From the NCBI GenBank assembly GCA_016124655.1, contig WGNI01000011.1:64196-128195 (forward strand): a stretch of DNA of 64,000 nt. The letters run 5' to 3'. Position 1 is the stretch's first letter, and every line of letters begins with the position of its first letter. Below the pieces are notes generated by a model that did not search any database, had not been told where the DNA came from, and was given only the letters and a program-made list of their open reading frames with translations. Shown here one piece after another: positions 17,972-31,133 of this stretch. Position numbers and translations under genes: made by a program. This stretch comes from Alphaproteobacteria bacterium (lineage in GTDB: Bacteria > Pseudomonadota > Alphaproteobacteria > Caulobacterales > Aquidulcibacteraceae).

Positions 17972-18395
17972 GACCCAAACCGCATCTACGCCGCGCAGTG
18001 ACCAGACACTAAACAAATGCGCAGTTTGTGGCAATGATATGAGCGCATATGCCATGGCCTGAGACCTGAAAACGCCTCCAAGAATGAGTAGAGACCGTGA
18101 GACGATAGCTGGATTTCAACCGCGGCTGGTGGAGAAACCGGGGTCGCGTCAAAATCCTTCAAATCTCTGGCGTTCCGCCTCACATCGGCGCCGCAGACTG
18201 GTCCTGAAACTCACTTTGCGGAGCGACTGAGCTATTGCCGGAAATCGGGGTGTCGAACCCCGGAGCTGGCCGTGCCCTTCAAGCCTCTGGCGGGGTTTCG
18301 AGACGGCAAAAGCCTAGTGGCGGAGAGTGAAGGACAAGGTCCAAACTCGGAGCCACGCGCGCAGGGTTGGTGTGGCGGCTGCTCGCAGGCGAGGA

Positions 18396-18409
18396 TGGCG
18401 GAGAGGGAG
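18396..18409. repeat. attL-like direct repeat (TGGCGGAGAGGGAG) identical to the last 14 nt of the tRNA-Ser gene at 25691-25704
   Basis: This is an exact 14-bp match to the tRNA 3' end. A second degenerate copy (tggcggagagtgaagga) lies at 18318-18334. It marks the left boundary of the lower-GC island. Confidence 0.6.
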
Positions 18410-18541
18410 TCCGACGACAGCCCTTATTTTTCAAGGGTTGCGAGGTGATGACGACTGCGTACCCACGTCGCAACCCACGTTAACTGCGCCTTCCCGTCGC
18501 CGTTTGCCAGCGCGCGCCGATGACTCGCAACTAAATGGTAA

Positions 18542-18982
18542 GTGAGGCTTGCTACCAAAGGCTGTGGCGACGCGGGGGAGCCGACAGTGTTTTGGCGCAG
18601 TGTGATTCCAGCGATCCTGCTGGTTGCGACAGCAACGGGCGCTGCGGCGTTACCTGCAACTACTTTGTCTTGTGCAGGAACCGTCTCTGTTCGCGGATAT
18701 CAAGACCTTCCCTACGCTGGTGTGGTTGTGACCGTCGAAGAGGATGCGGTCGTTATTGAGAACCTGCCGAGCCTAAGTGGCACATGGCCCATTTTCCGAG
18801 CAACAGACCATCTGATCACAGTCTTGTCGGCCACGACGAGCGGCGGCCAAGTTCAAGCCAGCTTCAACAGGTTAAGCGGCGACATGTGGATTATGGCGTC
18901 GAACTCGCCCGTGGGCCGCCTCCCCACCAGAGAAGAGATGCGATTCTCTGGACGATGCGCCCGAGCGGAACGGATTTTCTGA
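18542..18982 (+). CDS. Hypothetical secreted protein (island cargo)
   Basis: It has a signal-peptide-like segment (WRSVIPAILLVATATGAAALPA) and no recognisable domain. The start is uncertain, with a GTG near 18587 possible. Confidence 0.35.
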   Translation: MRLATKGCGDAGEPTVFWRSVIPAILLVATATGAAALPATTLSCAGTVSVRGYQDLPYAGVVVTVEEDAVVIENLPSLSGTWPIFRATDHLITVLSATTSGGQVQASFNRLSGDMWIMASNSPVGRLPTREEMRFSGRCARAERIF

Positions 18983-19030
18983 ACCCTCAAGATCGTCCCG
19001 CTTGCCAGGCAGGCATGTAATGGTCGTCGG

Positions 19031-19417
19031 TCAGAACATAGGCCCGGTGCATTGCCCGTTTAGCATCTGACCGTGGCATGTCGGATGATATGCGCGCTGC
19101 TCAACTATGGTTCCGTGGCACTGCCCGTTCACGATGGCACCTACGCACTCGTCAGGGCTGTAAACCGTCGTCGAGTTTTGAACGGCAACCGCACCGGGAC
19201 GCATTGTTTCCGACTGCGCCTGCGCGGAACGATGTTCGCCAGCAGAAAACGCGCAGGCTTCGCGTACTGCGCTAAATATGAGGAGCGCGCTTTGACAGGC
19301 ACCGCCCTGCGAGCGTGCCGTCTCCTTCCCAGGGGCGGGAGAACTCGTCGAAGCGCAGGAAGCAAGACTCAGCGCTGCCAAGCTCGTAACTAAAATACAA
19401 ACGCTTGACCTACGCAT
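19031..19417 (-). CDS. Hypothetical Cys-rich lipoprotein (island cargo)
   Basis: It has a signal peptide with a lipobox (LSLASC) and a repeated NGQC(H/T)G motif. It sits in lower-GC DNA. The internal ATG at 19417 is preferred. Confidence 0.45.
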   Translation of the reverse strand: MRRSSVCILVTSLAALSLASCASTSSPAPGKETARSQGGACQSALLIFSAVREACAFSAGEHRSAQAQSETMRPGAVAVQNSTTVYSPDECVGAIVNGQCHGTIVEQRAYHPTCHGQMLNGQCTGPMF

Positions 19418-19886
19418 GTGGTTCGCCCGGTTCTTATGGATTCGATCCAACGGTGGTGTACGGCAAAGGTGTTAAATTCTCGCCCAAGTTGAAGGTGTAG
19501 ATTTCGTTTTCGCGTCTTGGCTGCGCAGCGAGGCGTAATTGTGGGGGCTTTGGGAGAGGTCCGAAAAATTGATACATATTTGGCGAGCCCGGTAGATCAG
19601 GGAAAAGCGACCTGGAATATAACCATCCCCCCGGTACCCTCGACCGATTTTTGCCACGCTCATAAAATTCCTGATCGCTTTCGCGTTGCCGAGTCCAGGC
19701 AGCGCCGTTCGGCTGCGTGGAAAGGGGAGGCAGCGGACAACGGGGCGAACCGCACGCAGCGCCACCCTATGCCGTTCAACGCGAACGTTCACAGAGCGAC
19801 GAACTTTCTTTCGTACAACACAGCTCGCGCAGATCGTGGGTTAAGCCGTGGGTTGGACACTGAGGCGGCAGCGCGGGCCTTATAGA

Positions 19887-20390
19887 TCAAGGCTTGATGG
19901 CGGACGCCTGATCCGACGACGGATACGTTACGTCGTTAAACTCAGCGTCGATGGCCTCGTTGGCAAACTCCACCGGACGGCCCGCCTTTAAATCTTCAAG
20001 CGCTTCGAGCAGCGCCTCGGCGCTATTGTCGATAACGGCGACTGCACTCCGCGAAACGGTCACGATGCCAGCTTTTTCCAAAAGCTCCTTGGCCGCCGCG
20101 AGGCGCACGCTTTCATTGCGCGCATTTCGAGCGAGGGCGAGGATCGTGTCGAACGCGACGTTGGTGGCGGACACGAAGCGCTTCTGCACTTCCTCTTTCA
20201 ACACCTTCTGAATGCGGTCAGACCCAAGCAGGATCGCGGCGGAGCGTTTGGCGTCTTCATCGGACGTGGCGAGGCCCGCGCGCTTCGCCGCCTCAGGACC
20301 GTCTTCGGGACGGCCGCCAAGCTCCAAGTAGTGCGCGAGGAATTGCGACTGCGCCGGGTTCAGATTGGCGATGGTAAGCGAGCGAGACAT
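19887..20390 (-). CDS. terS: Phage terminase small subunit (TerS, Terminase_2-like)
   Basis: The N-terminus (LTIANLNPAQSQFLAHYLELGG...AAKRAGLATSDEDAKRSAAILLGSDRIQKVLKEE) fits the Terminase_2 small-subunit pattern (LT.kQe.F..eYl..gN...AA..AGYS...A...g..LL.n..I...I). Confidence 0.6.
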   Translation of the reverse strand: MSRSLTIANLNPAQSQFLAHYLELGGRPEDGPEAAKRAGLATSDEDAKRSAAILLGSDRIQKVLKEEVQKRFVSATNVAFDTILALARNARNESVRLAAAKELLEKAGIVTVSRSAVAVIDNSAEALLEALEDLKAGRPVEFANEAIDAEFNDVTYPSSDQASAIKP

Positions 20391-20618
20391 GGCGAAGGCG
20401 ATCAGCGGTTAGAGCGAGACAGAATTTTTCACGGACACGGAGCGTGCGGCGCGCACGCCCAGCGGTGCAGGCGCATGGAGGCAGGAGCAAGCGACCAAAC
20501 ACTGGCGGGCGCGGCGTCTTATAACCTTTCGGGGAGGTGTATTACGGCCGGTCTGAAATGTGCTGCGGGCGCGCGCTTCCAGCGCCGCAAGCACATAGGG
20601 GGTATGGGGGTTGAGACT

Positions 20619-20712
20619 ACCCCCTGGTTTTTCCCCGGTTTTGGGCATTTTGGCTCCGGTTTTGGGCAGGGTTTTGGGCAGGGTTTTTCCCCGGTTTTTC
20701 CCCGGTTTTGGC
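20619..20712. repeat. Iteron-like tandem repeat array (GGTTTTGGGCA / GGTTTTTCCCC units at about 11-bp spacing), a putative replication origin
   Basis: At least seven helically phased GGTTTT-containing repeats lie immediately downstream of the primase-helicase gene 3' end, in the position where PICI and SaPI origins are found. Confidence 0.55.
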
Positions 20713-20734
20713 CTTATAACCTGGGCAAACAGCA

Positions 20735-22738
20735 TTAGCTCGGCCCTCCGGTTTGATGGGTTTCTCCGGTTTTCTTCGCGCGCCGCGCCAGCTCTTTCGC
20801 CATCGTTTCGTCGCTCGGATAGTAGCCAGCGCTCATGCGTTTATCGCCGCGCACGTAGCGCAACTGTCCTGCGTCCAGCGCAGCGCGAAGCTCCTCTTTG
20901 ACCGCCTTCGACGTGAGCTTTTTCGCCAGCTCTTTTTCAAGCTGATTCAGAACGGGGCCGTCAATGTTGCGCTGGACGGTGAACGGCAGCCCCAACTCAG
21001 CGGCTTGCGTGGCGGCGCGCACGACAGCTTCGCGCATCGCGGTGGCGTCCTGCGCGGCCGTGGGCACAACCGCAGTGGGGATCAGCGCGCCTCTGTAAAA
21101 GCGCAGCTTGATCGGCTCGCCCTTGCGACCGTGGTTGCGCTTTTCGACGGTCAGAACGAACTCATCTTCCTTGTTCTCGTTCGCCTCGATCTTTAAGCGG
21201 GAGCGCGCGGCGTTGCGCCAGGCAACCGACCAACCGTCCATTTCACCGCGACTGCTCCCAGCCTGCGACGGATGCCACGGCATTATGATGGTGCAGTCGC
21301 CTTTATCGCATATGCCTTGAAGAACGACCTTGATAAACAGGTTCACGCTGTCTTCGTCGATTTTTCCGTGACCTTTAAAGCGAACAAAGTCGTAAGCGCT
21401 GTCGAGCACCAAGACTTTATGGCCGGGGATGCTTTGCAAGAGCGAAAGCAGCTCGTGATAAAACGGCCGCAACGTGCAGTCCGCGCTCTCGCCCATGATC
21501 GCCAACGCGCTGTCTTTGCCCTTGCGAGCGAGGAACACGCCTCCCGCGTAGGGAGTGTCAGGCGTAGGCTTGGAGGGCGGCGGCAGCTCCAACACGTCGG
21601 CGATGGCCTGCGCACGGCGCGCAAGTTCATTTTCGTCGTCTTCGGCGCTCACATACACCATCGTCGCCTGCGCCGGAGGCGGATCGCACTTGATGCCGAA
21701 CGGAGGCGCGCCGACGTTCAGCGCCATCGCCCATTGCTGCGCAAGACGGCTTTTGTGGTTTCCACCCGGCGCACAAAGGAACGTGACAATGCCTTTCTCC
21801 AAGAGCCCGGTAATAAGCTCCTGCACCGGATGAACCTTGCGCCCCAGCATGTCGAACGCGGAAATCGTGTCACCCGGCTCAGAATGCGGACGCTCGCCCA
21901 GCGCCGGGGTGGAGAGGATCAAATCGCAAAGCGCATCCGCGCCATAAGAAACGAGGAAATCGTCAGCGCCGACTTTGTGCGGCTTCCCTTTCGCATCGAC
22001 CTGATTAGAAGGCGGGATGCGAACGCAATGAACGCGCGCGCCCTGCAACGCCAGCAGCGTCGCAAGACGTTGTTCAGCGCGCTCCACATTGGAGTTGGTA
22101 GCGATGTCGCTGTCGAAGAGGATGCAAACGTCAGTAAACTGCGCCACCACCGTAGCGAGATCGGGATGCAGCGCGTGCGAGGCGGACTTGCTCTCGCGCA
22201 CATTGTCCACGCCACCGATGGCGACACACGGAATGCCGACCTTGCAGAGCGCAGCCGCTTTCTTCTCGCCCTCTACAACGCATACAGCGCCTTCGGGCAA
22301 AATCGACGGCGCAAGGGCTCGCGGGAAGTAGATTTGCGAACCGCTTCCACGCGGCGCGTCGTATTTGCGCCCATCCTTGGGCAGCGATTTGCCGAGAACC
22401 GGAAGGTAGCGAGGACGCACATAGGGCACGCCAACGCCGGTCAGATCGTAGCTAAGCGGCGCTCCATCCATACGAAGATAAGGGATGATGATGGCCGGAT
22501 GCTGTGCGAAATCGGGATGAACAGTGCTGGCGTCGTCCACCAAATACATCCCGTTCGCCTGCGCATCTGCAAGCGTGAGCCCGCTACGCGCCAAGTCATT
22601 CTTGGCAAGCGCCAGCGTCACGCCGCTGCATTCGCCGTCATTGGCGGACGCACGGAGGCGCGTGACGTTGATGTTCGACGGGTTGTCCGCCATATTGGTT
22701 TCCGTCATCGCGTAAGTGATCCGTGTCTTTCGGCGCAT
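20735..22738 (-). CDS. Primase-helicase (toprim/DUF3854-like N-terminal domain plus AAA_25/RepA-like P-loop NTPase)
   Basis: It has a toprim-like segment (VVEGEKKAAALCKVGIPCVAIGGVDN), a P-loop with a deviant Walker A (LCAPGGNHKS), and a Walker B (VLVLDSAYDF). It is 667 aa, the typical size of P4-alpha and PICI Pri-Rep proteins. Confidence 0.6.
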   Translation of the reverse strand: MRRKTRITYAMTETNMADNPSNINVTRLRASANDGECSGVTLALAKNDLARSGLTLADAQANGMYLVDDASTVHPDFAQHPAIIIPYLRMDGAPLSYDLTGVGVPYVRPRYLPVLGKSLPKDGRKYDAPRGSGSQIYFPRALAPSILPEGAVCVVEGEKKAAALCKVGIPCVAIGGVDNVRESKSASHALHPDLATVVAQFTDVCILFDSDIATNSNVERAEQRLATLLALQGARVHCVRIPPSNQVDAKGKPHKVGADDFLVSYGADALCDLILSTPALGERPHSEPGDTISAFDMLGRKVHPVQELITGLLEKGIVTFLCAPGGNHKSRLAQQWAMALNVGAPPFGIKCDPPPAQATMVYVSAEDDENELARRAQAIADVLELPPPSKPTPDTPYAGGVFLARKGKDSALAIMGESADCTLRPFYHELLSLLQSIPGHKVLVLDSAYDFVRFKGHGKIDEDSVNLFIKVVLQGICDKGDCTIIMPWHPSQAGSSRGEMDGWSVAWRNAARSRLKIEANENKEDEFVLTVEKRNHGRKGEPIKLRFYRGALIPTAVVPTAAQDATAMREAVVRAATQAAELGLPFTVQRNIDGPVLNQLEKELAKKLTSKAVKEELRAALDAGQLRYVRGDKRMSAGYYPSDETMAKELARRAKKTGETHQTGGPS

Positions 22739-22773
22739 CCAGAAGCCCGCCGCGCCAACGGTGGGTTGTTGTT

Positions 22774-23229
22774 TTAGAGACGATACCCGGCCGCTGGGTC
22801 AGGACGCCTTTGCGGGAGATTGATGTAAGCGTTCGGGGTGCCGCGCCCGTTGTGCATTGCGCGCCTCACGCGCAACCCCAAATGAAGCGCGGCGGCGATA
22901 AGCATTCCATTGGCGACGTAGCTGTTGCCTTGGTAGGTCGCGGCAAACCAGCGTTCGACTTCATGCTTGTAGCCGTAAGACGTAGCGTGACGGTTCAGCG
23001 AGGCCGTGGGCTTCATTAAGCTCAACCACGCGATGGCTTTCTCGAACTCTTGGCACGAACTTTCCGTAAGCGCATCGGCGCGCATCGCCGCCAGATCGTC
23101 CGAAGGCCGAAATTTCCCGAAGCCGTATGAACTCAGCTCGGGCTCGCGTTCCAAGATCGCCGCGACCTCCGCGCGAACGTCTTCAACAGGGCGATACTCA
23201 AATACGGGGAGTTGGGAACGGCTGTTCAT
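22774..23229 (-). CDS. Hypothetical protein (island)
   Basis: 151 aa with no recognisable domain. Its start codon overlaps the alpA stop (ATGA), implying translational coupling. Confidence 0.4.
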   Translation of the reverse strand: MNSRSQLPVFEYRPVEDVRAEVAAILEREPELSSYGFGKFRPSDDLAAMRADALTESSCQEFEKAIAWLSLMKPTASLNRHATSYGYKHEVERWFAATYQGNSYVANGMLIAAALHLGLRVRRAMHNGRGTPNAYINLPQRRPDPAAGYRL

Positions 23230-23447
23230 TAGGCGGCTCCCTTCACCTGCGTCCGAGGGAGAGAAGCAAACCAGCGCTCGGCGCTTTCACGCGTGATGCG
23301 CGTGGCCGCACCAATTTTGACGCGCTCAACAGCGCCGGTTTTCATCAGCTCGTAGGCTTTGGTGTGTCGAACTCCGTAGAGAGCGCAAAACTCCTCCACG
23401 GTGTAGGCCAACGGTTGTTTGGCAAGGCTCAGCATCGTGTTCTCCAA
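23229..23447 (-). CDS. alpA: AlpA-family excisionase / transcriptional regulator (HTH)
   Basis: It is 72 aa with HTH sequence (YTVEEFCALYGVRHTKAYELMKTGAVERVKIGAATRITRESAERW), typical of AlpA/Xis proteins of P4-like and PICI elements. Confidence 0.65.
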   Translation of the reverse strand: MENTMLSLAKQPLAYTVEEFCALYGVRHTKAYELMKTGAVERVKIGAATRITRESAERWFASLPRTQVKGAA

Positions 23448-23544
23448 GATCGCTAGCGGGTTCGCCTAGCTTCGGGGGAACACATGCGGCTTTGCGCGAA
23501 TGCGATCCATGAAACGAACGCCTTCGCTTCAAGGAATCGTTCGT

Positions 23545-24303
23545 TCACATGCCTTTGAGCCAACCTTTGACGGTGCGCGGATCGCGGCCGTACTCCGACG
23601 CGCGCAGCTCCGCAAAGCTGCTTACGGTCAGATGGCGGTTCGTCCCTTGGGAAATCTTAAAGTCCGCGCGCGCTTGATCTCGCAGGCTCTGCTTCCGGCG
23701 CGCAGCACCACTCTTGGCACCTGCGGCTTTACTTCTAGATTTCCCTTCCAGGCGCTCCCCGGCCAAGTTAAAGACGCCGAGAGTCACCTGTTGGAACGTG
23801 GCCTCCGCCGTGGAGAGTGCGTAGAGCGCAGCGTCGCGCCGCCCCATCCATTCATTGTAGGTTTCGGGCCTCCACGTTTGCTGTTCACGATCGACCGTCA
23901 GAAAAACGGCGAGCGCGCCTAGCACATCGGACGCGGCCATGATTTCGGGCGGCGCGTCTAAACCCTGGTCCAAATGAAAACGGCGGGCATCATCCGCGAT
24001 GCGCGAGAGAGCTTCTAAATCGCCACCCCGCGCTAGGCCAACGAGCTTCTTGCGCGGCGCATATCCTTCTTCCAGCAACGCCGAGAGAGCCGCATCGAAT
24101 GCCGCTCGGTGCGCTTGCTGCACGGCCTGCGCGGCAGCGGGCAGCGAGGACAGGCGCTCTTGCACCGAACCGCTTAGAAACGTCGGGCTCTGTGCCGAGG
24201 CGCGTGCAATGTTTTTACGCTGCGTGTCGGCGTCACCCTCGAAAATGTCGTCAAAGGTCACGCGCTGCGCTCCCTGACTTTGCTGGCGCAGAACGCCGAC
24301 CAA
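23545..24303 (-). CDS. Hypothetical protein (island), possibly regulatory
   Basis: 252 aa with no clear domain. The track ORF overlaps the integrase 3' end, and a GTG at about 24261 would place its start immediately after the int stop codon. Confidence 0.35.
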   Translation of the reverse strand: MVGVLRQQSQGAQRVTFDDIFEGDADTQRKNIARASAQSPTFLSGSVQERLSSLPAAAQAVQQAHRAAFDAALSALLEEGYAPRKKLVGLARGGDLEALSRIADDARRFHLDQGLDAPPEIMAASDVLGALAVFLTVDREQQTWRPETYNEWMGRRDAALYALSTAEATFQQVTLGVFNLAGERLEGKSRSKAAGAKSGAARRKQSLRDQARADFKISQGTNRHLTVSSFAELRASEYGRDPRTVKGWLKGM

Positions 24304-25502
24304 GCGTCCATGAGCGCGCGACGCTTCTGGAACAAATCGCCGCGTCGGTAGGCCGCTTCAACCTTGTCACCGACAACGTGAGCCAACGCCGCCTCAGCCA
24401 CTTCGCGCGGGAAATTGGTCTTTTCCGCAGCCCAGTCGCGGAATGTGGAGCGGAAACCGTGAACCGTTTCGGCGCGCTGCATCCGGCGCAGAAGCACGGC
24501 CATCGTCGCCTGCGAGATCATTGCACCTTTGCGCATGTCGCTCGGAAAGATCAAATCGGAAGGCTCAGGATTGCCCGCCGCGTCATGGCGTTGTTTCAAC
24601 ACTGCAAGCGCAGCCTTAGAGAGTGGAACGCGATGCGTCCGGCCACCTTTCATGCGCTCAGCCGCGACGGTCCACAGCGCATTCTTGAAATCAATCTCAC
24701 CCCACGTCGCGCCAGCGGCCTCGCCGTACCGCGCCGCCGTAAGGATCAAAAACCGCAGACAGTCGGCACCAGCGCCGGTGCGATGCGAGAGCGCATCATA
24801 CAGCGCAGGCATTTGGTCGATGGGCACGGCACGATGATGCTGGACCGGCGCGAGTTTCGCACGGGAGGGAAGCGCCTTCTGCAAATGTCCACGCCACCGC
24901 GCAGGGTTGTCGCCGGTGCGATGGCCGCGCACCGCAGCCCAATCCAAAATCGTTTCGATGCGCCCGCGCAGGCGTGACGCCGTTTCCGTCTTGGTCGTCC
25001 AGATCGGATCGAGCACCCGCATAACCAAATCTTGGCTCACGTCGGCGACCGGAACGCCGCCCATGACCGGATAAGCGTAGGTAACGAGCGTGCTGCGCCA
25101 TTGCGCGCGGTGCTTGTCATTGCGCCAAGAGCCTTCATGCGCCGCGATGTAGGCTTCCGCGCACTCTTTAAACGTGAGCTGCGGCGTGCGTTCGGCTTTC
25201 GCCTCCTTCCGCGCCTTTCGGCGGGAGTCGATGGGGTCAGTGCCCGCCTTGGCGAGTTTGCGCTGAGCGAGGGCAGCGTCGCGCGCGTCGCCAAGTTCGA
25301 CCAGATCGGCGGAGCCAAGGCCCATTTCACGGCGGCGGCCATCGGCGGCGGTGTAGCGCACGATCCAAGACCGGCGCACGGCTCCGCCACGACCGATAGC
25401 CACCTGCAAGAACAGGCCGCCTCCGTCCGCATAAAGGCCGGGAGCCTTGGCCGCCGCTACCGCGCGGGCGGTTAGTTTATGGACGCCTCTCGCCATGCCC
25501 AA
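24258..25502 (-). CDS. int: Tyrosine-type site-specific integrase (P4-type, with DUF4102 N-terminal arm-binding domain)
   Basis: The catalytic R...HxxR...Y residues are present (HGFRSTFRDWA, AAYRRGD). It lies directly beside the 3' end of tRNA-Ser. Confidence 0.85.
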   Translation of the reverse strand: MGMARGVHKLTARAVAAAKAPGLYADGGGLFLQVAIGRGGAVRRSWIVRYTAADGRRREMGLGSADLVELGDARDAALAQRKLAKAGTDPIDSRRKARKEAKAERTPQLTFKECAEAYIAAHEGSWRNDKHRAQWRSTLVTYAYPVMGGVPVADVSQDLVMRVLDPIWTTKTETASRLRGRIETILDWAAVRGHRTGDNPARWRGHLQKALPSRAKLAPVQHHRAVPIDQMPALYDALSHRTGAGADCLRFLILTAARYGEAAGATWGEIDFKNALWTVAAERMKGGRTHRVPLSKAALAVLKQRHDAAGNPEPSDLIFPSDMRKGAMISQATMAVLLRRMQRAETVHGFRSTFRDWAAEKTNFPREVAEAALAHVVGDKVEAAYRRGDLFQKRRALMDAWSAFCASKVRERSA

Positions 25503-25690
25503 ACGCTGTGCAAAACCCTCGCCAAACTGCGAACCGGGATTCTAACTCACCGCCTCCACCCACGAATTTGGGGTGACTTGCGACGAAGTTCAGCGATCCG
25601 CTGCGAAGGAATATAGCGTAGGAAAACCTTGTTTTACAGAGGTTTGATAAGGATTTTCCGAAGGGCTACGAAGTGGAACGAATGCGGAAC

Positions 25691-25780
25691 TGGCGGAGAG
25701 GGAGGGATTCGAACCCTCGATACCCGTGAAGGTATTCCGGTTTTCGAGACCGGCGCGATCGACCACTCCGCCACCTCTCC
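25691..25780 (-). tRNA. tRNA-Ser (anticodon CGA), type II with a long variable arm
   Basis: A minus-strand cloverleaf (GGAGAGGTGGCGGAGTGG...CTCGAAA...GGGTTCGAATCCCTCCCTCTCCGCCA). The anticodon loop CUCGAAA gives anticodon CGA. The 3' end encodes CCA. Confidence 0.8.
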
Positions 25781-25846: not shown

Positions 25847-28800
25847 CTAGGCGGCGCGGCGTGCGGCGAAGCGACCGCCATCGAGGGCGACCACCCGGCC
25901 ATACTTGGCCAGCGTGGTCAGCACCTCGGCAATGCGCTTTTGGCGCGCCTCGCTGGTCTTGCCCTTGAAGAGGCGCGCCAGGGCCGCCGCGTCGAGCGGC
26001 TGGCCGTGCGCGGCCAACGCAGCCTCGATGGCGAGCGGCTGCTCGTAGCGATCCTTCGGAAACGCGGGCAGCGCGGCCGTGAGTGGTTCTTCGGCCTCGG
26101 CGAAATCTAGATCGCCGGTTCGCGGCGCAGGCGCCGTCTTGGCGAAGCGCGGGATCTGATACTCCGGCCGCAGCCAGCGAACAAAGCCTTGGGCTTCTTC
26201 CCTGGCGGGCTCGGTATTGAGCGCGACGAGGCGTTCAAGAATTTGTTCGTCGCTGAGATCGGCGGGCCAGCCATAGGCTTCCGCGGTCGCCGCATCGATC
26301 TGATTGTGCAAGTCCTTCAGCACCAGCACGAGCCCGCGCGTCTTCACGTCCTCTTCCGCTGCGCTGAGCGTCGCGCCCGCTTTGACCTTTTCCAGTACGT
26401 TGTAGAGGCCTGTCAGCGTGAGATCGGAATGTTCGGCCTGCACGCGCTTGCGCGTGGCGTCGAGTTCTTCGCCAAGCGCGCGCAGCTTGGCTTTGAGCGG
26501 CTCCGGCGGATCGGGGAAGGGGAAGGGATCGAAGCAGGTTGTTTTGACATAGACCGGCCTGTCCTCGAGCAATCCGCCGACATGAGATGTCCAGGCAAGG
26601 TGTGGCTTCGACGAGAGAATAGCTAAGTGTGCTCCGTCTCCGTTCGCGATCACAATGAGCTTGTTGTCCGGAACGATTTCCGCTTCGAGAAACTGAAATG
26701 TGCGGTGTTTCGAAGTTTCGATCGTCGCGATGTAGCGCGGCAATCCTTCAAGGGCAGGACGCAGGTCCCGCCGTGGCTCGCCAAAGACCCACCAATTGGT
26801 TTTGTAGCTCTCGCGATTGTTTTGATCGCGCTCCGGCTTCACCCGCGCGAGGACGTGTTGATACACTTCCGGAAATCGCTGGCGCGCTCCTCCGCGCTCA
26901 ACCCGAAAAGATCGATCACCATAACATCGCGCGAATGGCCAGTGAGATCGCGGCCGTTGCGATAGGGGCGGATGTGGCGCTCAAGCCCGGCGCGATTGCC
27001 CAAGCCCAGAAGCGCCGCTTCCGCAGGCGTCACGATGAAGCCGGCTCCCATCAATTGAACGCCCCGAGAGCAAAGGCCGCGACCCGCGTTCAACGGTTGC
27101 GTACTCGTCAGGTCGATTCCAACACTCAAATCCGCATTGATGCGCCCCATCGAAAGCTTGAAGTCAATTTTCGGCTCATCCGTATCGATGTCGCGTTCGG
27201 AGACCGCCTCCATCAGCCGCCCGAATGTCGGTTCCGCCTGCGCGACGCTCATGGCGATGCGCACGGCGGCGCTGTCTTTGGTCGCCTTGGTCCAGGGTTG
27301 ATCCGGAATCGCGAACACCAGGCAGAGCGGATTCTTGGCGGCGAGGTGGCGCTCGATCACGCGGCGCTGAAACACCTGGCTGATCGAATTGGTGGTGACG
27401 AGCCCGAACCGGCGCAACGCGGTTTGGTCGCGGCGCAAAACGTCCGCCGCGCGATCCCACCAATACATCACGTAATCGGCGCTCTCATTCATGTGCGGAT
27501 GCGCGGCCCACAGCGCTTCGGCATAGCCGGGCTCACTGCGCGAGCGAATATCCTTGCCGCCGATAAACGGCGGATTGCCGACGATGAACTCGGCTTCCGG
27601 CCAGGCGGGGCGGCGGGGATTGGGGTAGTGCTCGGTGCGAACTGCTCCCCCGTTCACGGGGGAGCTGTCAGGCTGCGAAGCAGGCTGACTGAGGGGGCTC
27701 GCCTGCTCACTCCCCCCTCCGGTCGCTGCGCGACCACCGCCCCCGTGAACGGGGGAGGAGTTGGTCTGCACCGCCGGCACAGGAAACCCATCCCAGGTCA
27801 ACACGGCGTCATAGCCCTCGCGCTTGCCGAAATTGATGTTCTCGAACGCGCGCAGGATCGGCTCTTCGGGATGCGCCGTCGTATTGCGATAGTGCCATTG
27901 CAGATAGCCGATCCACACCACGAGTTCAGCGATGGCGGCGGCGCGCGGATTCAGCTCAAGGCCCAGAAATAAATGCGGGTCGACCGTGAGGTTCTTGAGC
28001 GCAAGCAGGCCTTGTTCGTCGCCCAGCTTGGTCAGCGTCTCCAGCACTTCGCCTTCGAGCTGCTTCATCAGTTCGAGCGCGACGTAAAGAAAATTGCCCG
28101 TGCCGCAAGCCGGATCGAGCACGCGCGTGTGCGTCAGCTGATCGTGGAACGCGCGGACGATGGCGATCGCCTTGCCGTCTTCTCCTTCGTCCTTGGCGAT
28201 TTCCGCCTTGGTCAACGCCGCTTCCCAATCGGCCCGCAACGGCTCCATGACGGTGACTTCGACGAGGCGTTGCACATAGGCGCGCGGCGTGTAGTGAGCG
28301 CCCAGTTTCTTGCGTTCCGCTGGATCCAGCGCTTGCTCCAACAGCGTGCCGAAGATAGCCGGGTCGACTTCCCGCCAGTCGGCCTTCGCCGCGCGAAGCA
28401 AGACGCCGATCTCTTCCTTTTTCAGTTGAAAGGCCGTGGTGTTCTTGAAGAGGCCGCCATTGAAGTGCCGCACGCGCGCTTCAATCACATGGCTGAACTC
28501 GACGCCCTTTTCCATGTCGCTCCAGAGCTGCTTCAAGCGCAGGGTGAACGTCTCGGGATTGTCGACGCACTTTCGAAGCAGGTCACGAAAACTCTCTTTC
28601 GGCAAAAGCCCAGTGTCTTCCGCGAACATCGTGAAGAGGCACCGCATCAGGAAATGCGCGACATCTTCCGCGTGATTTCCGCGGTCTTCCAGCGCCTTGC
28701 TGACCTCCGCCAGATATCCTGCGATCTCTCGCGTAACGCGGACCGCTTTCTTCGCCGGATCGAGACCATGTGGATCCGTCCAGATCGCTTTAAGGAGGTC

Positions 28801-29358
28801 GCGCGTTCTTTCGTTGCGTAAGTCTTCCAGAAAGAGTCGATATCCATTGCGATCGGGAAACTGCGTGTAGGCGCGCCCTGTGCCGGTGAAGTCGGCGTAC
28901 AATTCGAAACAATGCCCAACATCGCAGACGATGATGAAAGGCGGCGCCGTGTGGTTGGAGTCGAGCAGGAAGACGTAGCCTTCCGCCTGCTTGCGCGCAT
29001 TGCGCATCATGACGTCCCAGCCGCGTTGCGCTGTGCGCTCGCCCTGCGGCGATTCATTGAACAGCGCCATTTGGCCGGGGAGGGCGTTCTTGCTGCCCGG
29101 GAGGCGGGATTGTTTGGCCTCGAGGATGAAGCAGTTGCGCTTATAGATGTCGATGCGCTTGGGGTTGGTCGCGTCGGCGCTTTCGCGCGGCCTTACAGGG
29201 CGTTCGAAGGTATAGTCTCCCCCGTCGCCGCCGACCGCCGCATCGGGGCGGTCGACCGCGATCACATCGCAGAGTTCGTACAGGAAACCGACATAGTTCG
29301 CCCGCTCGGCGCCATGGCTCGATTTCCACTTGGCGATGAATGTCTCGATATCCGTCAC
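25847..29358 (-). pseudogene. MmeI-family type IIL restriction-modification enzyme (N-terminal PD-ExK nuclease plus gamma-class N6-adenine methyltransferase plus TRD), split by a frameshift near 26860-26875
   Basis: The 839-aa and 339-aa ORFs overlap at 26839-26866 in different frames, and together they align colinearly with MmeI. Shared motifs are D...EAK, AHYTP, DPACGTGNFL (motif I), NPPF (motif IV), and the C-terminal FDPFPFP...GLYN. Confidence 0.65.
27645..27758. repeat. In-frame 114-bp palindromic insertion inside the RM gene
   Basis: Two hairpin-forming units (ctcccccgttcacgggggag and cccccgtgaacgggggag) in inverted orientation flank further palindromes. The segment encodes a low-complexity peptide (SSPVHGGGGRAATGGG...SSPVNGG) just before the NPPF motif. 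Confidence 0.5.
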
Positions 29359-30984: not shown

Positions 30985-31058
30985 GGTGATGTAGCTCAAT
31001 GGTAGAGCGTCCGGCACGCGCCGGAAGGTAGAGGGTTCGATACCCTTCATCTCCTCCA
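30985..31058 (+). tRNA. tRNA-like gene with a non-canonical anticodon arm; identity unresolved (tRNA-Gly(CCC)-like D and T arms)
   Basis: It has a GTAGCTCAATGGTAGAGC D-arm, a GAGGGTTCGATACCCTT T-arm, and a CCA end. The anticodon stem TCCGG/CCGGA encloses only a 6-nt loop (CACGCG), and the acceptor stem has one T-T mismatch. Confidence 0.45.
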
Positions 31059-31133
31059 AACGACTAGCTCAGGTGGGTAGAGCACAAGACTGCTAATCTT
31101 GCTGTCGGAGGTTCGATTCCTCTGTCGTTGACC
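31059..31133 (+). tRNA. tRNA-like gene with class I (short variable arm) structure but a Ser-type anticodon loop CUGCUAA (anticodon GCU)
   Basis: It has a TAGCTCAGGTGGGTAGAGC D-arm, anticodon stem CAAGA/TCTTG, T-arm GGAGGTTCGATTCCTCT, and acceptor 3' strand GTCGTTG-A-CC with no encoded terminal A. Its 5' end abuts the previous tRNA, so nt 31058 would have to be shared. Confidence 0.45.

Follow-up and report, generated by a model that had tools for sequence, protein, structure and literature searches.

The replication origins of SaPIs, the pathogenicity islands of Staphylococcus aureus, and of the Gram-negative phage-inducible chromosomal islands (PICIs) consist of iterons located just 3' of the rep or pri-rep gene and are read by the C-terminal winged helix of the initiator (PMC9371898; PMC6092414); in Escherichia coli PICIs the rep-ori segment is sufficient for replication (PMC6092414). 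This work addresses a candidate origin in a 64,000-nucleotide stretch of alphaproteobacterial DNA (contig WGNI01000011.1; hereafter the window, whose numbering is used throughout), where a primase-helicase gene of a small integrative island is followed by a tandem array of short repeats. An initial annotation of the window had proposed an iteron-type origin 3' of the primase-helicase gene, a proposal that was supported by every comparative test made (position, covariation and selection). The array is considered likely to be the iteron part of the replication origin of this PICI-like island of ~7.3 kb, on account of a primase-helicase with a DNA-binding tail, a position that is kept while the sequence varies, covariation with the initiator, selection, the occurrence of the module without the terminase small subunit (TerS) and the SaPI/PICI precedent. 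The initial annotation missed a conserved C-rich box and a hairpin (20558-20624) that are part of the same module and constitute its more novel part, as a candidate origin core common to many AAA_25-based replicons.

The array begins 21 nucleotides (nt) past the stop codon (20735-20737) of the primase-helicase gene and comprises eight units, seven exact and one degenerate, all in the same orientation; the annotated coordinates, consensus and count (at least seven tandem GGTTTT(G/T)GGCA-type units right after the gene) were correct. On the plus strand the units read in order GGTTTTTCCCC GGTTTTGGGCA TTTTGGCTCC GGTTTTGGGCAG GGTTTTGGGCAG GGTTTTTCCCC GGTTTTTCCCC GGTTTTGGCC, with GGTTTTTCCCC starting at 20626, 20682 and 20693, GGTTTTGGGCA(G) at 20637, 20658 and 20670, GGTTTTGGCC at 20704 and the degenerate TTTTGGCTCC at 20648. 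Start-to-start spacing is 11, 11, 10, 12, 12, 11 and 11 base pairs (bp), and the region was recovered as overlapping 11- and 12-bp arrays by Tandem Repeats Finder and a repeat finder. The pattern GGTTTTKSSC occurs ten times in 64 kb, seven of them inside the array, compared with a mean of 1.26 and a maximum of 3 in shuffled sequence. Three further iteron-like AAACC units (AAAACCGG, GAAACCC and CAAACCGG in gene sense) are found within the last ~13 codons of the primase-helicase gene (20738-20775) and are not kept in the close relatives L026, L028 and L029 (L-numbers denote loci).

The spacing of the T-tracts bears on how the array would be read by a protein. In AA/TT periodicity the array ranks first among 6390 windows of 100 bp in the 64 kb, with a best period of 11.3 bp, and the mean centre spacing of its eight T-tracts is 11.07 bp. 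The phasing of ~11 bp had been equated with one helical turn and expected to produce bent DNA; the period is 11.1-11.3 bp and not 10.5, so that "one helical turn" is only approximate. The curvature prediction that had been called for was made as a simple phased-bend sum with 18 degrees per T-tract and gave a vector sum of 3.2 of the 8 tracts (~57 degrees) at 10.5 bp per turn and 6.4-6.9 of the 8 at 11.0-11.2 bp per turn. This calculation suggests that the curvature is superhelical or writhed rather than a planar bend, and the conserved period of 11-12 bp suggests sites on nearly one face of the DNA with a steady twist, an arrangement in keeping with DNA that wraps around or threads along an oligomeric initiator and not with a planar bend.

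The protein encoded upstream has the domains expected of such an initiator. Its 667 residues comprise a DnaG-like Toprim/DUF3854 region (~40-280), a RepA/RSF1010-like AAA_25 domain (~300-555) and a winged helix (~560-663, with the wing at 626-641), and the C-terminal 105 residues adopt a winged-helix fold. For the AlphaFold2 model (predicted local distance difference test score, pLDDT, 82.6) the best whole-chain Foldseek match was Twinkle (8e2l, E=1e-8); its N-terminus resembled the RNA-polymerase domains of DnaG and the ATPase resembled RSF1010 RepA (1nlf, 1olo, 1g8y). The family profile found no match among PDB sequences.

Relatives of this protein were gathered by protein similarity and not by the repeats, which provided 86 homologues and 33 loci from genomes, metagenomes and assemblies, in addition to L234-L236. 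They belong mostly to alphaproteobacterial genomes and metagenomes and the named homologues are few (Hyphomonadaceae, Rhizomicrobium, Mesorhizobium and Rhizobiaceae); the viral contig collection contained only one distant relative, no helper phage was identified, and no relative above 38% identity was found in the annotated phage and plasmid collections. In loci with enough downstream DNA the layout is shared: the stop codon is followed by an array of ~7-9 units, then by the box CCCCC(A/G)TACCCCC, a hairpin, a spacer of 100-300 nt and the TerS-like gene, which is syntenic in every family locus with an array. Absence of the repeats from homologous elements had been named as evidence that would count against an origin and is not what the relatives show: those with enough downstream DNA carry the array, except that nothing was seen in the DNA available for L021 and L025, and in L023 a box variant stands at the very end of the available DNA. 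The architecture is kept across 40-80% protein identity, with a top autocorrelation lag of 11, 12, 22 or 23 bp in 20 of the 21 family arrays, while the unit itself varies: GGGGAAAAACC and TGCCCAAAACC (AAAACC type) in the window group, GGTGCGGTTTT in L001, L005, L009-L011, L014 and L024, CGTCCGGTTTT in L030, L032 and L033, GGTAAAACC in L006 and L017, GGTCAAAACC in L007, GTTGAAACC in L012, L013, L016 and L022, GGGAAAAAT in L003 and GGGGAAG in L002. The branch with 41% identity (L018-L020), seemingly array-less, carries the whole module (array, box and hairpin) and the TerS-like gene at a distance of a further 3.9 kb downstream, and in L007 one gene is inserted before the array, which displaces it by 0.5 kb.

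The variation in unit sequence tracks the winged-helix tail of the primase-helicase and neither its core nor TerS. In Mantel tests of array 6-mer similarity versus protein identity (19 non-redundant loci) the correlation was 0.40 (rho; p=0.0002) for residues 600-655, which include the recognition helix and the wing, and 0.01 (p=0.43) for the helicase core; for TerS it was 0.00 (p=0.44) with residues 1-70 and 0.06 (p=0.17) with residues 71-130. Two natural exchanges agree with this pattern. Over residues 1-580, L030 shares 78-83% identity with the window group, and for TerS the values are mostly 80-89% (68% to L029). Its final 73 residues share 39-46% with the window group and 90% with L032/L033, the cores of which are 57% identical, and its iterons are of the L032/L033 type. 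The integrase of L030 is 71% identical, and its small upstream open reading frames (ORFs) have no detectable counterpart in the window. L001 is 60-82% identical to the window up to residue ~580 and only 32% for residues 620-659; the GRRPT...TRHR motifs found in this latter part are those of the L014 group (52% identity there), and the L001 iterons are of that group's GGTGCGG type. Two independent swaps with breakpoints at the helicase/winged-helix junction, and with TerS still near the window group, are what a functional specificity cassette predicts. The unit classes GGTGCGG and CGTCCGG are one core base apart, and the corresponding winged helices have the GRRP(S/T)Q helix in common, most of their differences being in the wing.

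Selection on the array was addressed in the window and its relatives L026, L028 and L029 (73-80% protein identity) by scoring columns identical in all four. Invariant columns amount to 71% in the array and 80% in the hairpin, compared with 60-61% in the first or last 150 nt of the flanking genes and 22% in the rest of the spacer; the differences within the array are mostly gains or losses of whole units with the register kept. The array is thus under purifying selection, being more conserved than the neighboring coding DNA, and this argues against its being a neutral tandem repeat produced by slippage. A real small gene, namely the ORF of 108 residues at 20409-20735, could also be envisaged, as gene callers annotate an ORF over the array in some relatives and the ATG overlapping the stop codon (TAATG) is conserved; however, the frame shifts and the peptide changes between close relatives while the DNA is kept, so that the ORFs across the array are spurious, as the initial annotation had stated, and this ORF is uncalled in L026, L030, L032 and L033 and has no family matches. 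Both explanations, slippage and gene, are extremely improbable. Concerning the stop codon itself, its context with the ATG overlapping TAA is AGCTAATGC (20733-20741) in the window, L026, L028, L001, L006 and L017, and AGCTAATGT in L029.

Beyond the array the gene sense reads GGGGG-TAGTCTCAA-CCCCCATACCCCC-TA (20598-20624), followed by the GC-rich hairpin. The first C-run of the box pairs with GGGGG (20620-20624) and forms a small stem with a loop at 20611-20619. The hairpin starts 0-8 nt from the box in nearly all of the 20 family loci and its stems are unrelated between loci (ATGTGC/GCACAT, ACGTGC/GCACGT, ATACTTC/GAAGTAT, CCAATAGGG/CCCTATTGG, GGCGGTC/GACCGCC). As these hairpins are too divergent for MAFFT alignment or RNAalifold, folding z-scores of the individual sequences were used instead, with a mean of -1.64 for the hairpin and +0.14 for a control segment taken 100 nt farther along (Wilcoxon p=1.3e-4; 20 loci). 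An Rfam search of 20300-20800 with permissive E-values gave only chance-level matches, no description of the box motif was found in Rfam or in the literature searched, where the box sequence led only to unrelated, mostly human, papers, and a literature search on AAA_25 helicase, primase and origin retrieved nothing relevant.

A hairpin ahead of the TerS-like gene could also be related to transcription: the repeats would be operators on curved DNA for an island regulator of the TerS operon, and the hairpin would terminate the primase-helicase transcript. A T-rich run follows the hairpin in several relatives, L142 having a textbook intrinsic terminator (GC stem and T7), a partly conserved TTA(T/C/G)AA-type element occurs between hairpin and TerS, and promoters are known to be activated by curved DNA upstream of them. 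Against this explanation, no sigma-70-like promoter and no minus-strand terminator were detected in the window region, the only terminator-like site being on the plus strand and at chance frequency, and the T-run is absent in many loci; moreover, transcriptional control leaves unexplained why the units follow the helicase tail and why a box of 13 nt is kept at the nucleotide level in elements of 35% to 71% G+C. It is therefore regarded as distinctly unlikely as the function of the module, although the hairpin may double as a terminator, which is compatible with an origin and not a rival to it.

The box extends well beyond this protein family. An exact scan of viral contigs for CCCCCATACCCCCTA returned more than 120 loci, of which an estimated ~100 could be chance; ~27 of the matches lie beside AAA_25 helicase genes and ~24 belong to one phage lineage (L047), and the remaining ones are probably chance. 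An unbiased test, unlike the exact scan, was provided by 75 viral loci chosen only by similarity to a Prim-Pol/AAA_25 helicase: the box (at most one mismatch, at most 1.5 kb downstream) was present in 50 of the 75, in all cases on the gene strand and never upstream, the estimated chance being ~1e-3 per locus. L060 and L136 have the box on the opposite strand. The AAA_25 helicases near the box carry Prim-Pol, Zn-ribbon-DnaG/Toprim_3 or Toprim_4 as fusion partner, or have no primase domain at all, and the viral repeats just upstream of it are element-specific (GCGAAAGTAA, GTCGGAAGC, GGCGGAAC, CTTCCAACC), often with an inverted copy just after the box. In the viral contigs the gene that follows repeats and box does not encode TerS but a protein of ~190 residues with a D-x-(I/L)PF tail similar to that of single-stranded DNA-binding protein (SSB), which suggests that this protein recruits host replisome partners.

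Taken with the hairpin, these loci make it conceivable that CCCCC(A/G)TACCCCC and the adjoining hairpin are an undescribed origin core of diverse phage, satellite and island replicons with an AAA_25 helicase and a C-terminal winged helix, a tentative proposal to which somewhat less than an even chance is assigned. According to this proposal the box is kept whatever primase is fused to the helicase (DUF3854, Prim-Pol, Zn-ribbon/Toprim or none), with iterons on one side and often an inverted iteron on the other, and would be the place where the conserved machinery melts, loads or primes, that is, the role of the AT-rich DNA unwinding element (DUE) in classical origins. The AAA_25 helicase is the only demonstrated protein part common to most box loci, and the L047 lineage is without it. 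Profile comparisons of the family winged helix with the tail of the L037 helicase and with the N-terminus of the L047 initiator were not significant, and hence no homology is claimed.

Several minor observations were made in the same viral loci. The genes after the module at L037 (3246-3836), L044 (7545-8087) and L045 (4141-4767) encode proteins of ~180-210 residues with no family match, which end in DDKLPF, LSDIPF and DDQIPF, respectively. In L047 (908-1783) and ~23 near-identical viral loci, CACCTTTAGG(T/G)A iterons and the C-rich box are located within a putative initiator gene that has no Pfam match, and the iterons translate as PLGTPLGTPLGHPLGTP; AAA_25 is absent and the next gene encodes a P-loop ATPase, read as DnaC-like. 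A motif, (A/G)TCATTGAAATCATT(A/G), is present among the iterons of high-GC AAA_25 origins (L034, L048, L141 and L142, 130 nt upstream of the box) and, in similar form, in the Rhizobium phage RHph_Y3_1 (L237, 4318-4400), which is without the box; it may be a host-factor site.

A number of findings weigh against the assignment of the array as an origin. When parted from the helicase gene, the array remains with the TerS-like gene (at 3.9 kb in L234/L019 and 0.5 kb in L007), and the family loci without a visible array are also without TerS in the available DNA, most of them being short or truncated. These facts would suit a packaging (pac) site, in which the TerS-like protein binds the phased repeats, as SPP1 G1P does on bent pacL/pacR, and the terminase cuts at or near the box; some of the sites bound by TerS typically have phased A-tract repeats. 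This is the serious rival, since the module stays directly upstream of the TerS-like gene even when parted from the helicase gene. It is nevertheless judged unlikely, considering that TerS does not covary with the repeats, that the TerS N-termini of the window, L001 and L030 are 78-86% identical with a near-identical helix-turn-helix (HTH) region while their three unit sequences are unrelated, that in viral contigs AAA_25 helicases are followed by the same type of repeats and box with a next gene other than TerS, and that the TerS assignment is itself weak.

The covariation on which the origin assignment draws has a caveat of its own: the winged-helix codons adjoin the array and a single recombination tract could transfer both with no functional coupling, so that covariation is expected under the origin model but is no proof of it. 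For the viral Prim-Pol family, once overall relatedness is taken into account, the winged helix contributes no further signal (partial rho 0.07). Furthermore, the winged helices of L212 and L219 (viral, Prim-Pol/AAA_25) are 99% identical, with a single Thr-to-Arg change in the wing, and their arrays (TCCGGTGGGTG vs TGCGGGKGGTA) differ at 3 of 10 positions; the small ORF beside the array is swapped as well. Both loci keep the inverted pair GCGGGAGTAGTG / CACTACTCCCGC around array and box. Such a case would be explained if the repeats were read by another factor (a small island protein or a host factor), or if they were copy-control or incompatibility sites, as P4 crr or in plasmid handcuffing, with initiation elsewhere; the window island does contain several small ORFs without assignment. 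This possibility is given a low probability too: no ORF lies between helicase stop and array in the window family, the L030 exchange is confined to the last 73 primase-helicase residues and the array, the rest of the gene and TerS being window-like, and repeat searches found no second array in the island. Also unfavorable is that an AT-rich unwinding element and an opposed iteron set, which are features of characterized PICI origins, are missing here: the segment 20391-20625 contains neither an AT-rich spacer nor an inverted unit. As to the box, some AAA_25 phages have iterons and no C-rich box, as is the case of RHph_Y3_1 (GTTCCCA iterons in both orientations), and none was found in the region of phage WO examined.

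In the mechanism proposed for the origin, after excision of the island the single-polypeptide replicase would bind the eight 11-bp units by way of its C-terminal winged helix, as covariation and fold indicate. Sites ~11.3 bp apart would place the bound domains near one face of gently writhed DNA, where a helicase ring or filament could assemble. Melting and loading would take place beside the array, at the CCCCCATACCCCC box and the hairpin, in the position of the SaPI/PICI AT-rich spacer, and the fused primase, to judge from the domain content, would then prime.

The comparison with the known islands shows both what is shared and what differs. As in SaPIs and PICIs, the element combines int, an xis/alpA-like gene, pri-rep, ori and a terS-like gene, in the order int-xis-pri/rep-ori-terS described for PICIs (PMC6092414), and the initiator unites helicase and primase in one protein, as PriRep5 of SaPI5 does. 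The iterons are directly 3' of the initiator gene (displaced by 0.5-3.9 kb in L007 and L234), their number, eight, is within the 6-12 expected, and their specificity for the initiator, presumably set by the C-terminal winged helix, is indicated by the covariation and the two swaps; specificity cassettes likewise differ between related islands. The SaPI/PICI precedent cited in the initial annotation was accurate (PMC9371898; PMC6092414), but the likeness is partial: the helicase is of the RecA-fold RepA/DnaB type (AAA_25, similar to superfamily 4, SF4), in contrast to the self-loading AAA+ helicases of superfamily 3 (SF3) of SaPIs and PICIs; units of 10-12 bp run in one direction, whereas opposed iteron sets surround an AT-rich centre in those islands; and the C-rich box and GC hairpin stand at one end of the array. 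The island is also smaller, 7.3 kb vs ~15 kb for SaPIs (PMC9371898). The candidate origin would work functionally like a SaPI/PICI Rep-ori, but by its defining features it is outside that class.

Other replicons share individual elements with this locus. Among dedicated helicases, the window helicase domain is structurally nearest to RepA of the IncQ plasmid RSF1010; as in the oriV of that plasmid, direct iterons lie near a GC-rich structured element, which here becomes a candidate hairpin-type priming or loading signal. IncQ origins have iterons of 20-22 bp (3.5 in number), a segment rich in AT and, on opposite strands, two ssi hairpins, unlike the present locus, with 11-bp units, one hairpin, the 13-nt C-rich box and no AT-rich block; in addition, one polypeptide takes the place of the three IncQ proteins (RepA helicase, RepB' primase and RepC initiator), and nothing similar in sequence to RepC or RepB' was detected. 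The alpha protein of satellite phage P4 likewise unites primase, helicase and, at its C-terminus, an origin-binding domain, and acts on short repeated sites; its helicase is SF3 (D5-type), its ori is kilobases from the gene and a second site (crr) is needed, and family and profile searches detected no homology to it. T7 gp4 and Twinkle have the same succession of a Toprim primase and a RecA-type hexameric helicase in one chain, but are not known to possess a C-terminal winged helix or iteron origin recognition of their own. The Toprim-like N-terminal DUF3854 domain is shared with the cyanobacterial CyRepA, and weak tblastn matches to plasmids are annotated as CyRepA1 family; the helicase part of CyRepA is however DEXDc and not AAA_25, and identity is at most 38% over 130-180 residues. 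CyRepA proteins are plasmid Rep proteins, for which autonomous replication was shown by experiment and a rolling-circle mode was proposed (PMC10079941).

If the origin assignment is correct, the logic of SaPIs and PICIs, a self-loading helicase with iterons 3' of its gene, would be extended to an uncharacterized family of small islands with a helicase of another superfamily and another origin layout, and the natural swaps of winged-helix tail and iterons represent ready-made material for specificity switching. If box and hairpin were a general origin core, they would offer a searchable sequence handle for origins in uncultured phages, satellites and mobile elements, and would raise the question of which conserved protein surface recognizes a GC-rich box in the place that AT-rich DNA takes in other origins. 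Related islands (L027 1926-4675; L028 7265-10747; L029 176-3354; L030 6843-9724) carry differing cargo of anti-phage or defense-like kinds, including ApaLI-type restriction-modification with Vsr, GmrSD with a type ISP enzyme, Eco57I-like genes, and E2-like with cyclase/cNMP-binding genes; their replication and mobilization therefore bear on the spread of defense genes.

The features of the island and of the candidate origin module are compiled in Table 1.

Table 1. Coordinates of the island, its genes and the candidate origin module in the window.
Feature	Coordinates	Strand	Remarks
Island	18396-25704		bounds from att (attachment site) copies
att, second copy, 14 bp	18396..18409	.	TGGCGGAGAGGGAG; repeat of the tRNA-Ser end
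Small ORF	19031-19450		no assignment
Small ORF	19472-19792		no assignment
TerS-like gene, 167 residues	19887..20390	-	first gene past the origin module; weak: Terminase_2 E=0.0027 (below Pfam cut-off), phrog_2538 E=1.6e-7
ORF over array	20331-20738	+
ORF over array	20409-20735	-
Exact 10-bp direct repeat	20518-20527 and 20713-20722	.	CTTATAACCT; copies bracket array, box and hairpin
GC-rich hairpin	20558..20596	-	ATGTGCT.TGCGGCGC...GCGCCCGCAGCACAT; inverted repeat directly after box
Conserved box	20598..20610	-	CCCCCATACCCCC, then TA at 20596-20597; once in window; after the array in nearly all related loci, sometimes slightly changed
ORF over array	20611-20901	+
Iteron array, gene sense	20626..20713	-	GGCCAAAACC, GGGGAAAAACC x2, CTGCCCAAAACC x2, GGAGCCAAAA (degenerate), TGCCCAAAACC, GGGGAAAAACC
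Primase-helicase-initiator gene, 667 residues	20735..22738	-	DUF3854 and AAA_25 (Pfam), C-terminal winged helix
Small ORF	22774-23229		no assignment
Excisionase/AlpA-like HTH gene, 72 residues	23229..23447	-	phrog_66 E=2e-6; TIGR01764 excisionase family E=3e-4 (below cut-off)
Small ORF	23545-24303		no assignment
Tyrosine integrase	24258..25502	-	Arm-DNA-bind_3, Phage_int_M, Phage_integrase; abuts tRNA-Ser(CGA)
tRNA-Ser(CGA), integration target	25691..25780	-	final 14 nt (25691-25704) are one att copy

By its gene content, which comprises integrase, att sites, an xis/alpA-type regulator and a replication module, with no virion structural genes found in Pfam and PHROGs searches, the element can be described as a satellite-like or PICI-like island. 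Upstream of the primase-helicase gene and on its strand are the excisionase-like gene, two ORFs without assignment and the integrase. The primase-helicase, the TerS-like protein and the small ORFs match no NCBIfam family, PADLOC gave no defense matches inside the island, and a PDB sequence search with the TerS-like protein returned only chance matches; no matches were obtained for the cargo ORFs of the window island (18535-19792). Arm sites of the integrase were considered for the array and rejected, as it lies 2.2 kb and 5 kb from the att copies. The 10-bp direct repeat CTTATAACCT is only partly kept in relatives, as a TTA(T/C/G)AA core, and its copy at 20518 may belong to the promoter region of TerS.

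At the borders of the island, a third, imperfect att copy (TGGCGGAGAGTGAAGGA) is found at 18318-18334, 78 bp outside attR, and may be a scar left by earlier integration into this tRNA-Ser. Immediately across the tRNA-Ser and outside the island, two overlapping minus-strand ORFs (26839-29358 and 25847-26866) make up a Type IIG (MmeI-like) restriction-methyltransferase, probably split by a frameshift. Further along the window, ARAGORN called an odd tRNA with a two-base anticodon ("tRNA-???") at 30985-31133, abutting tRNA-Ser(GCT).

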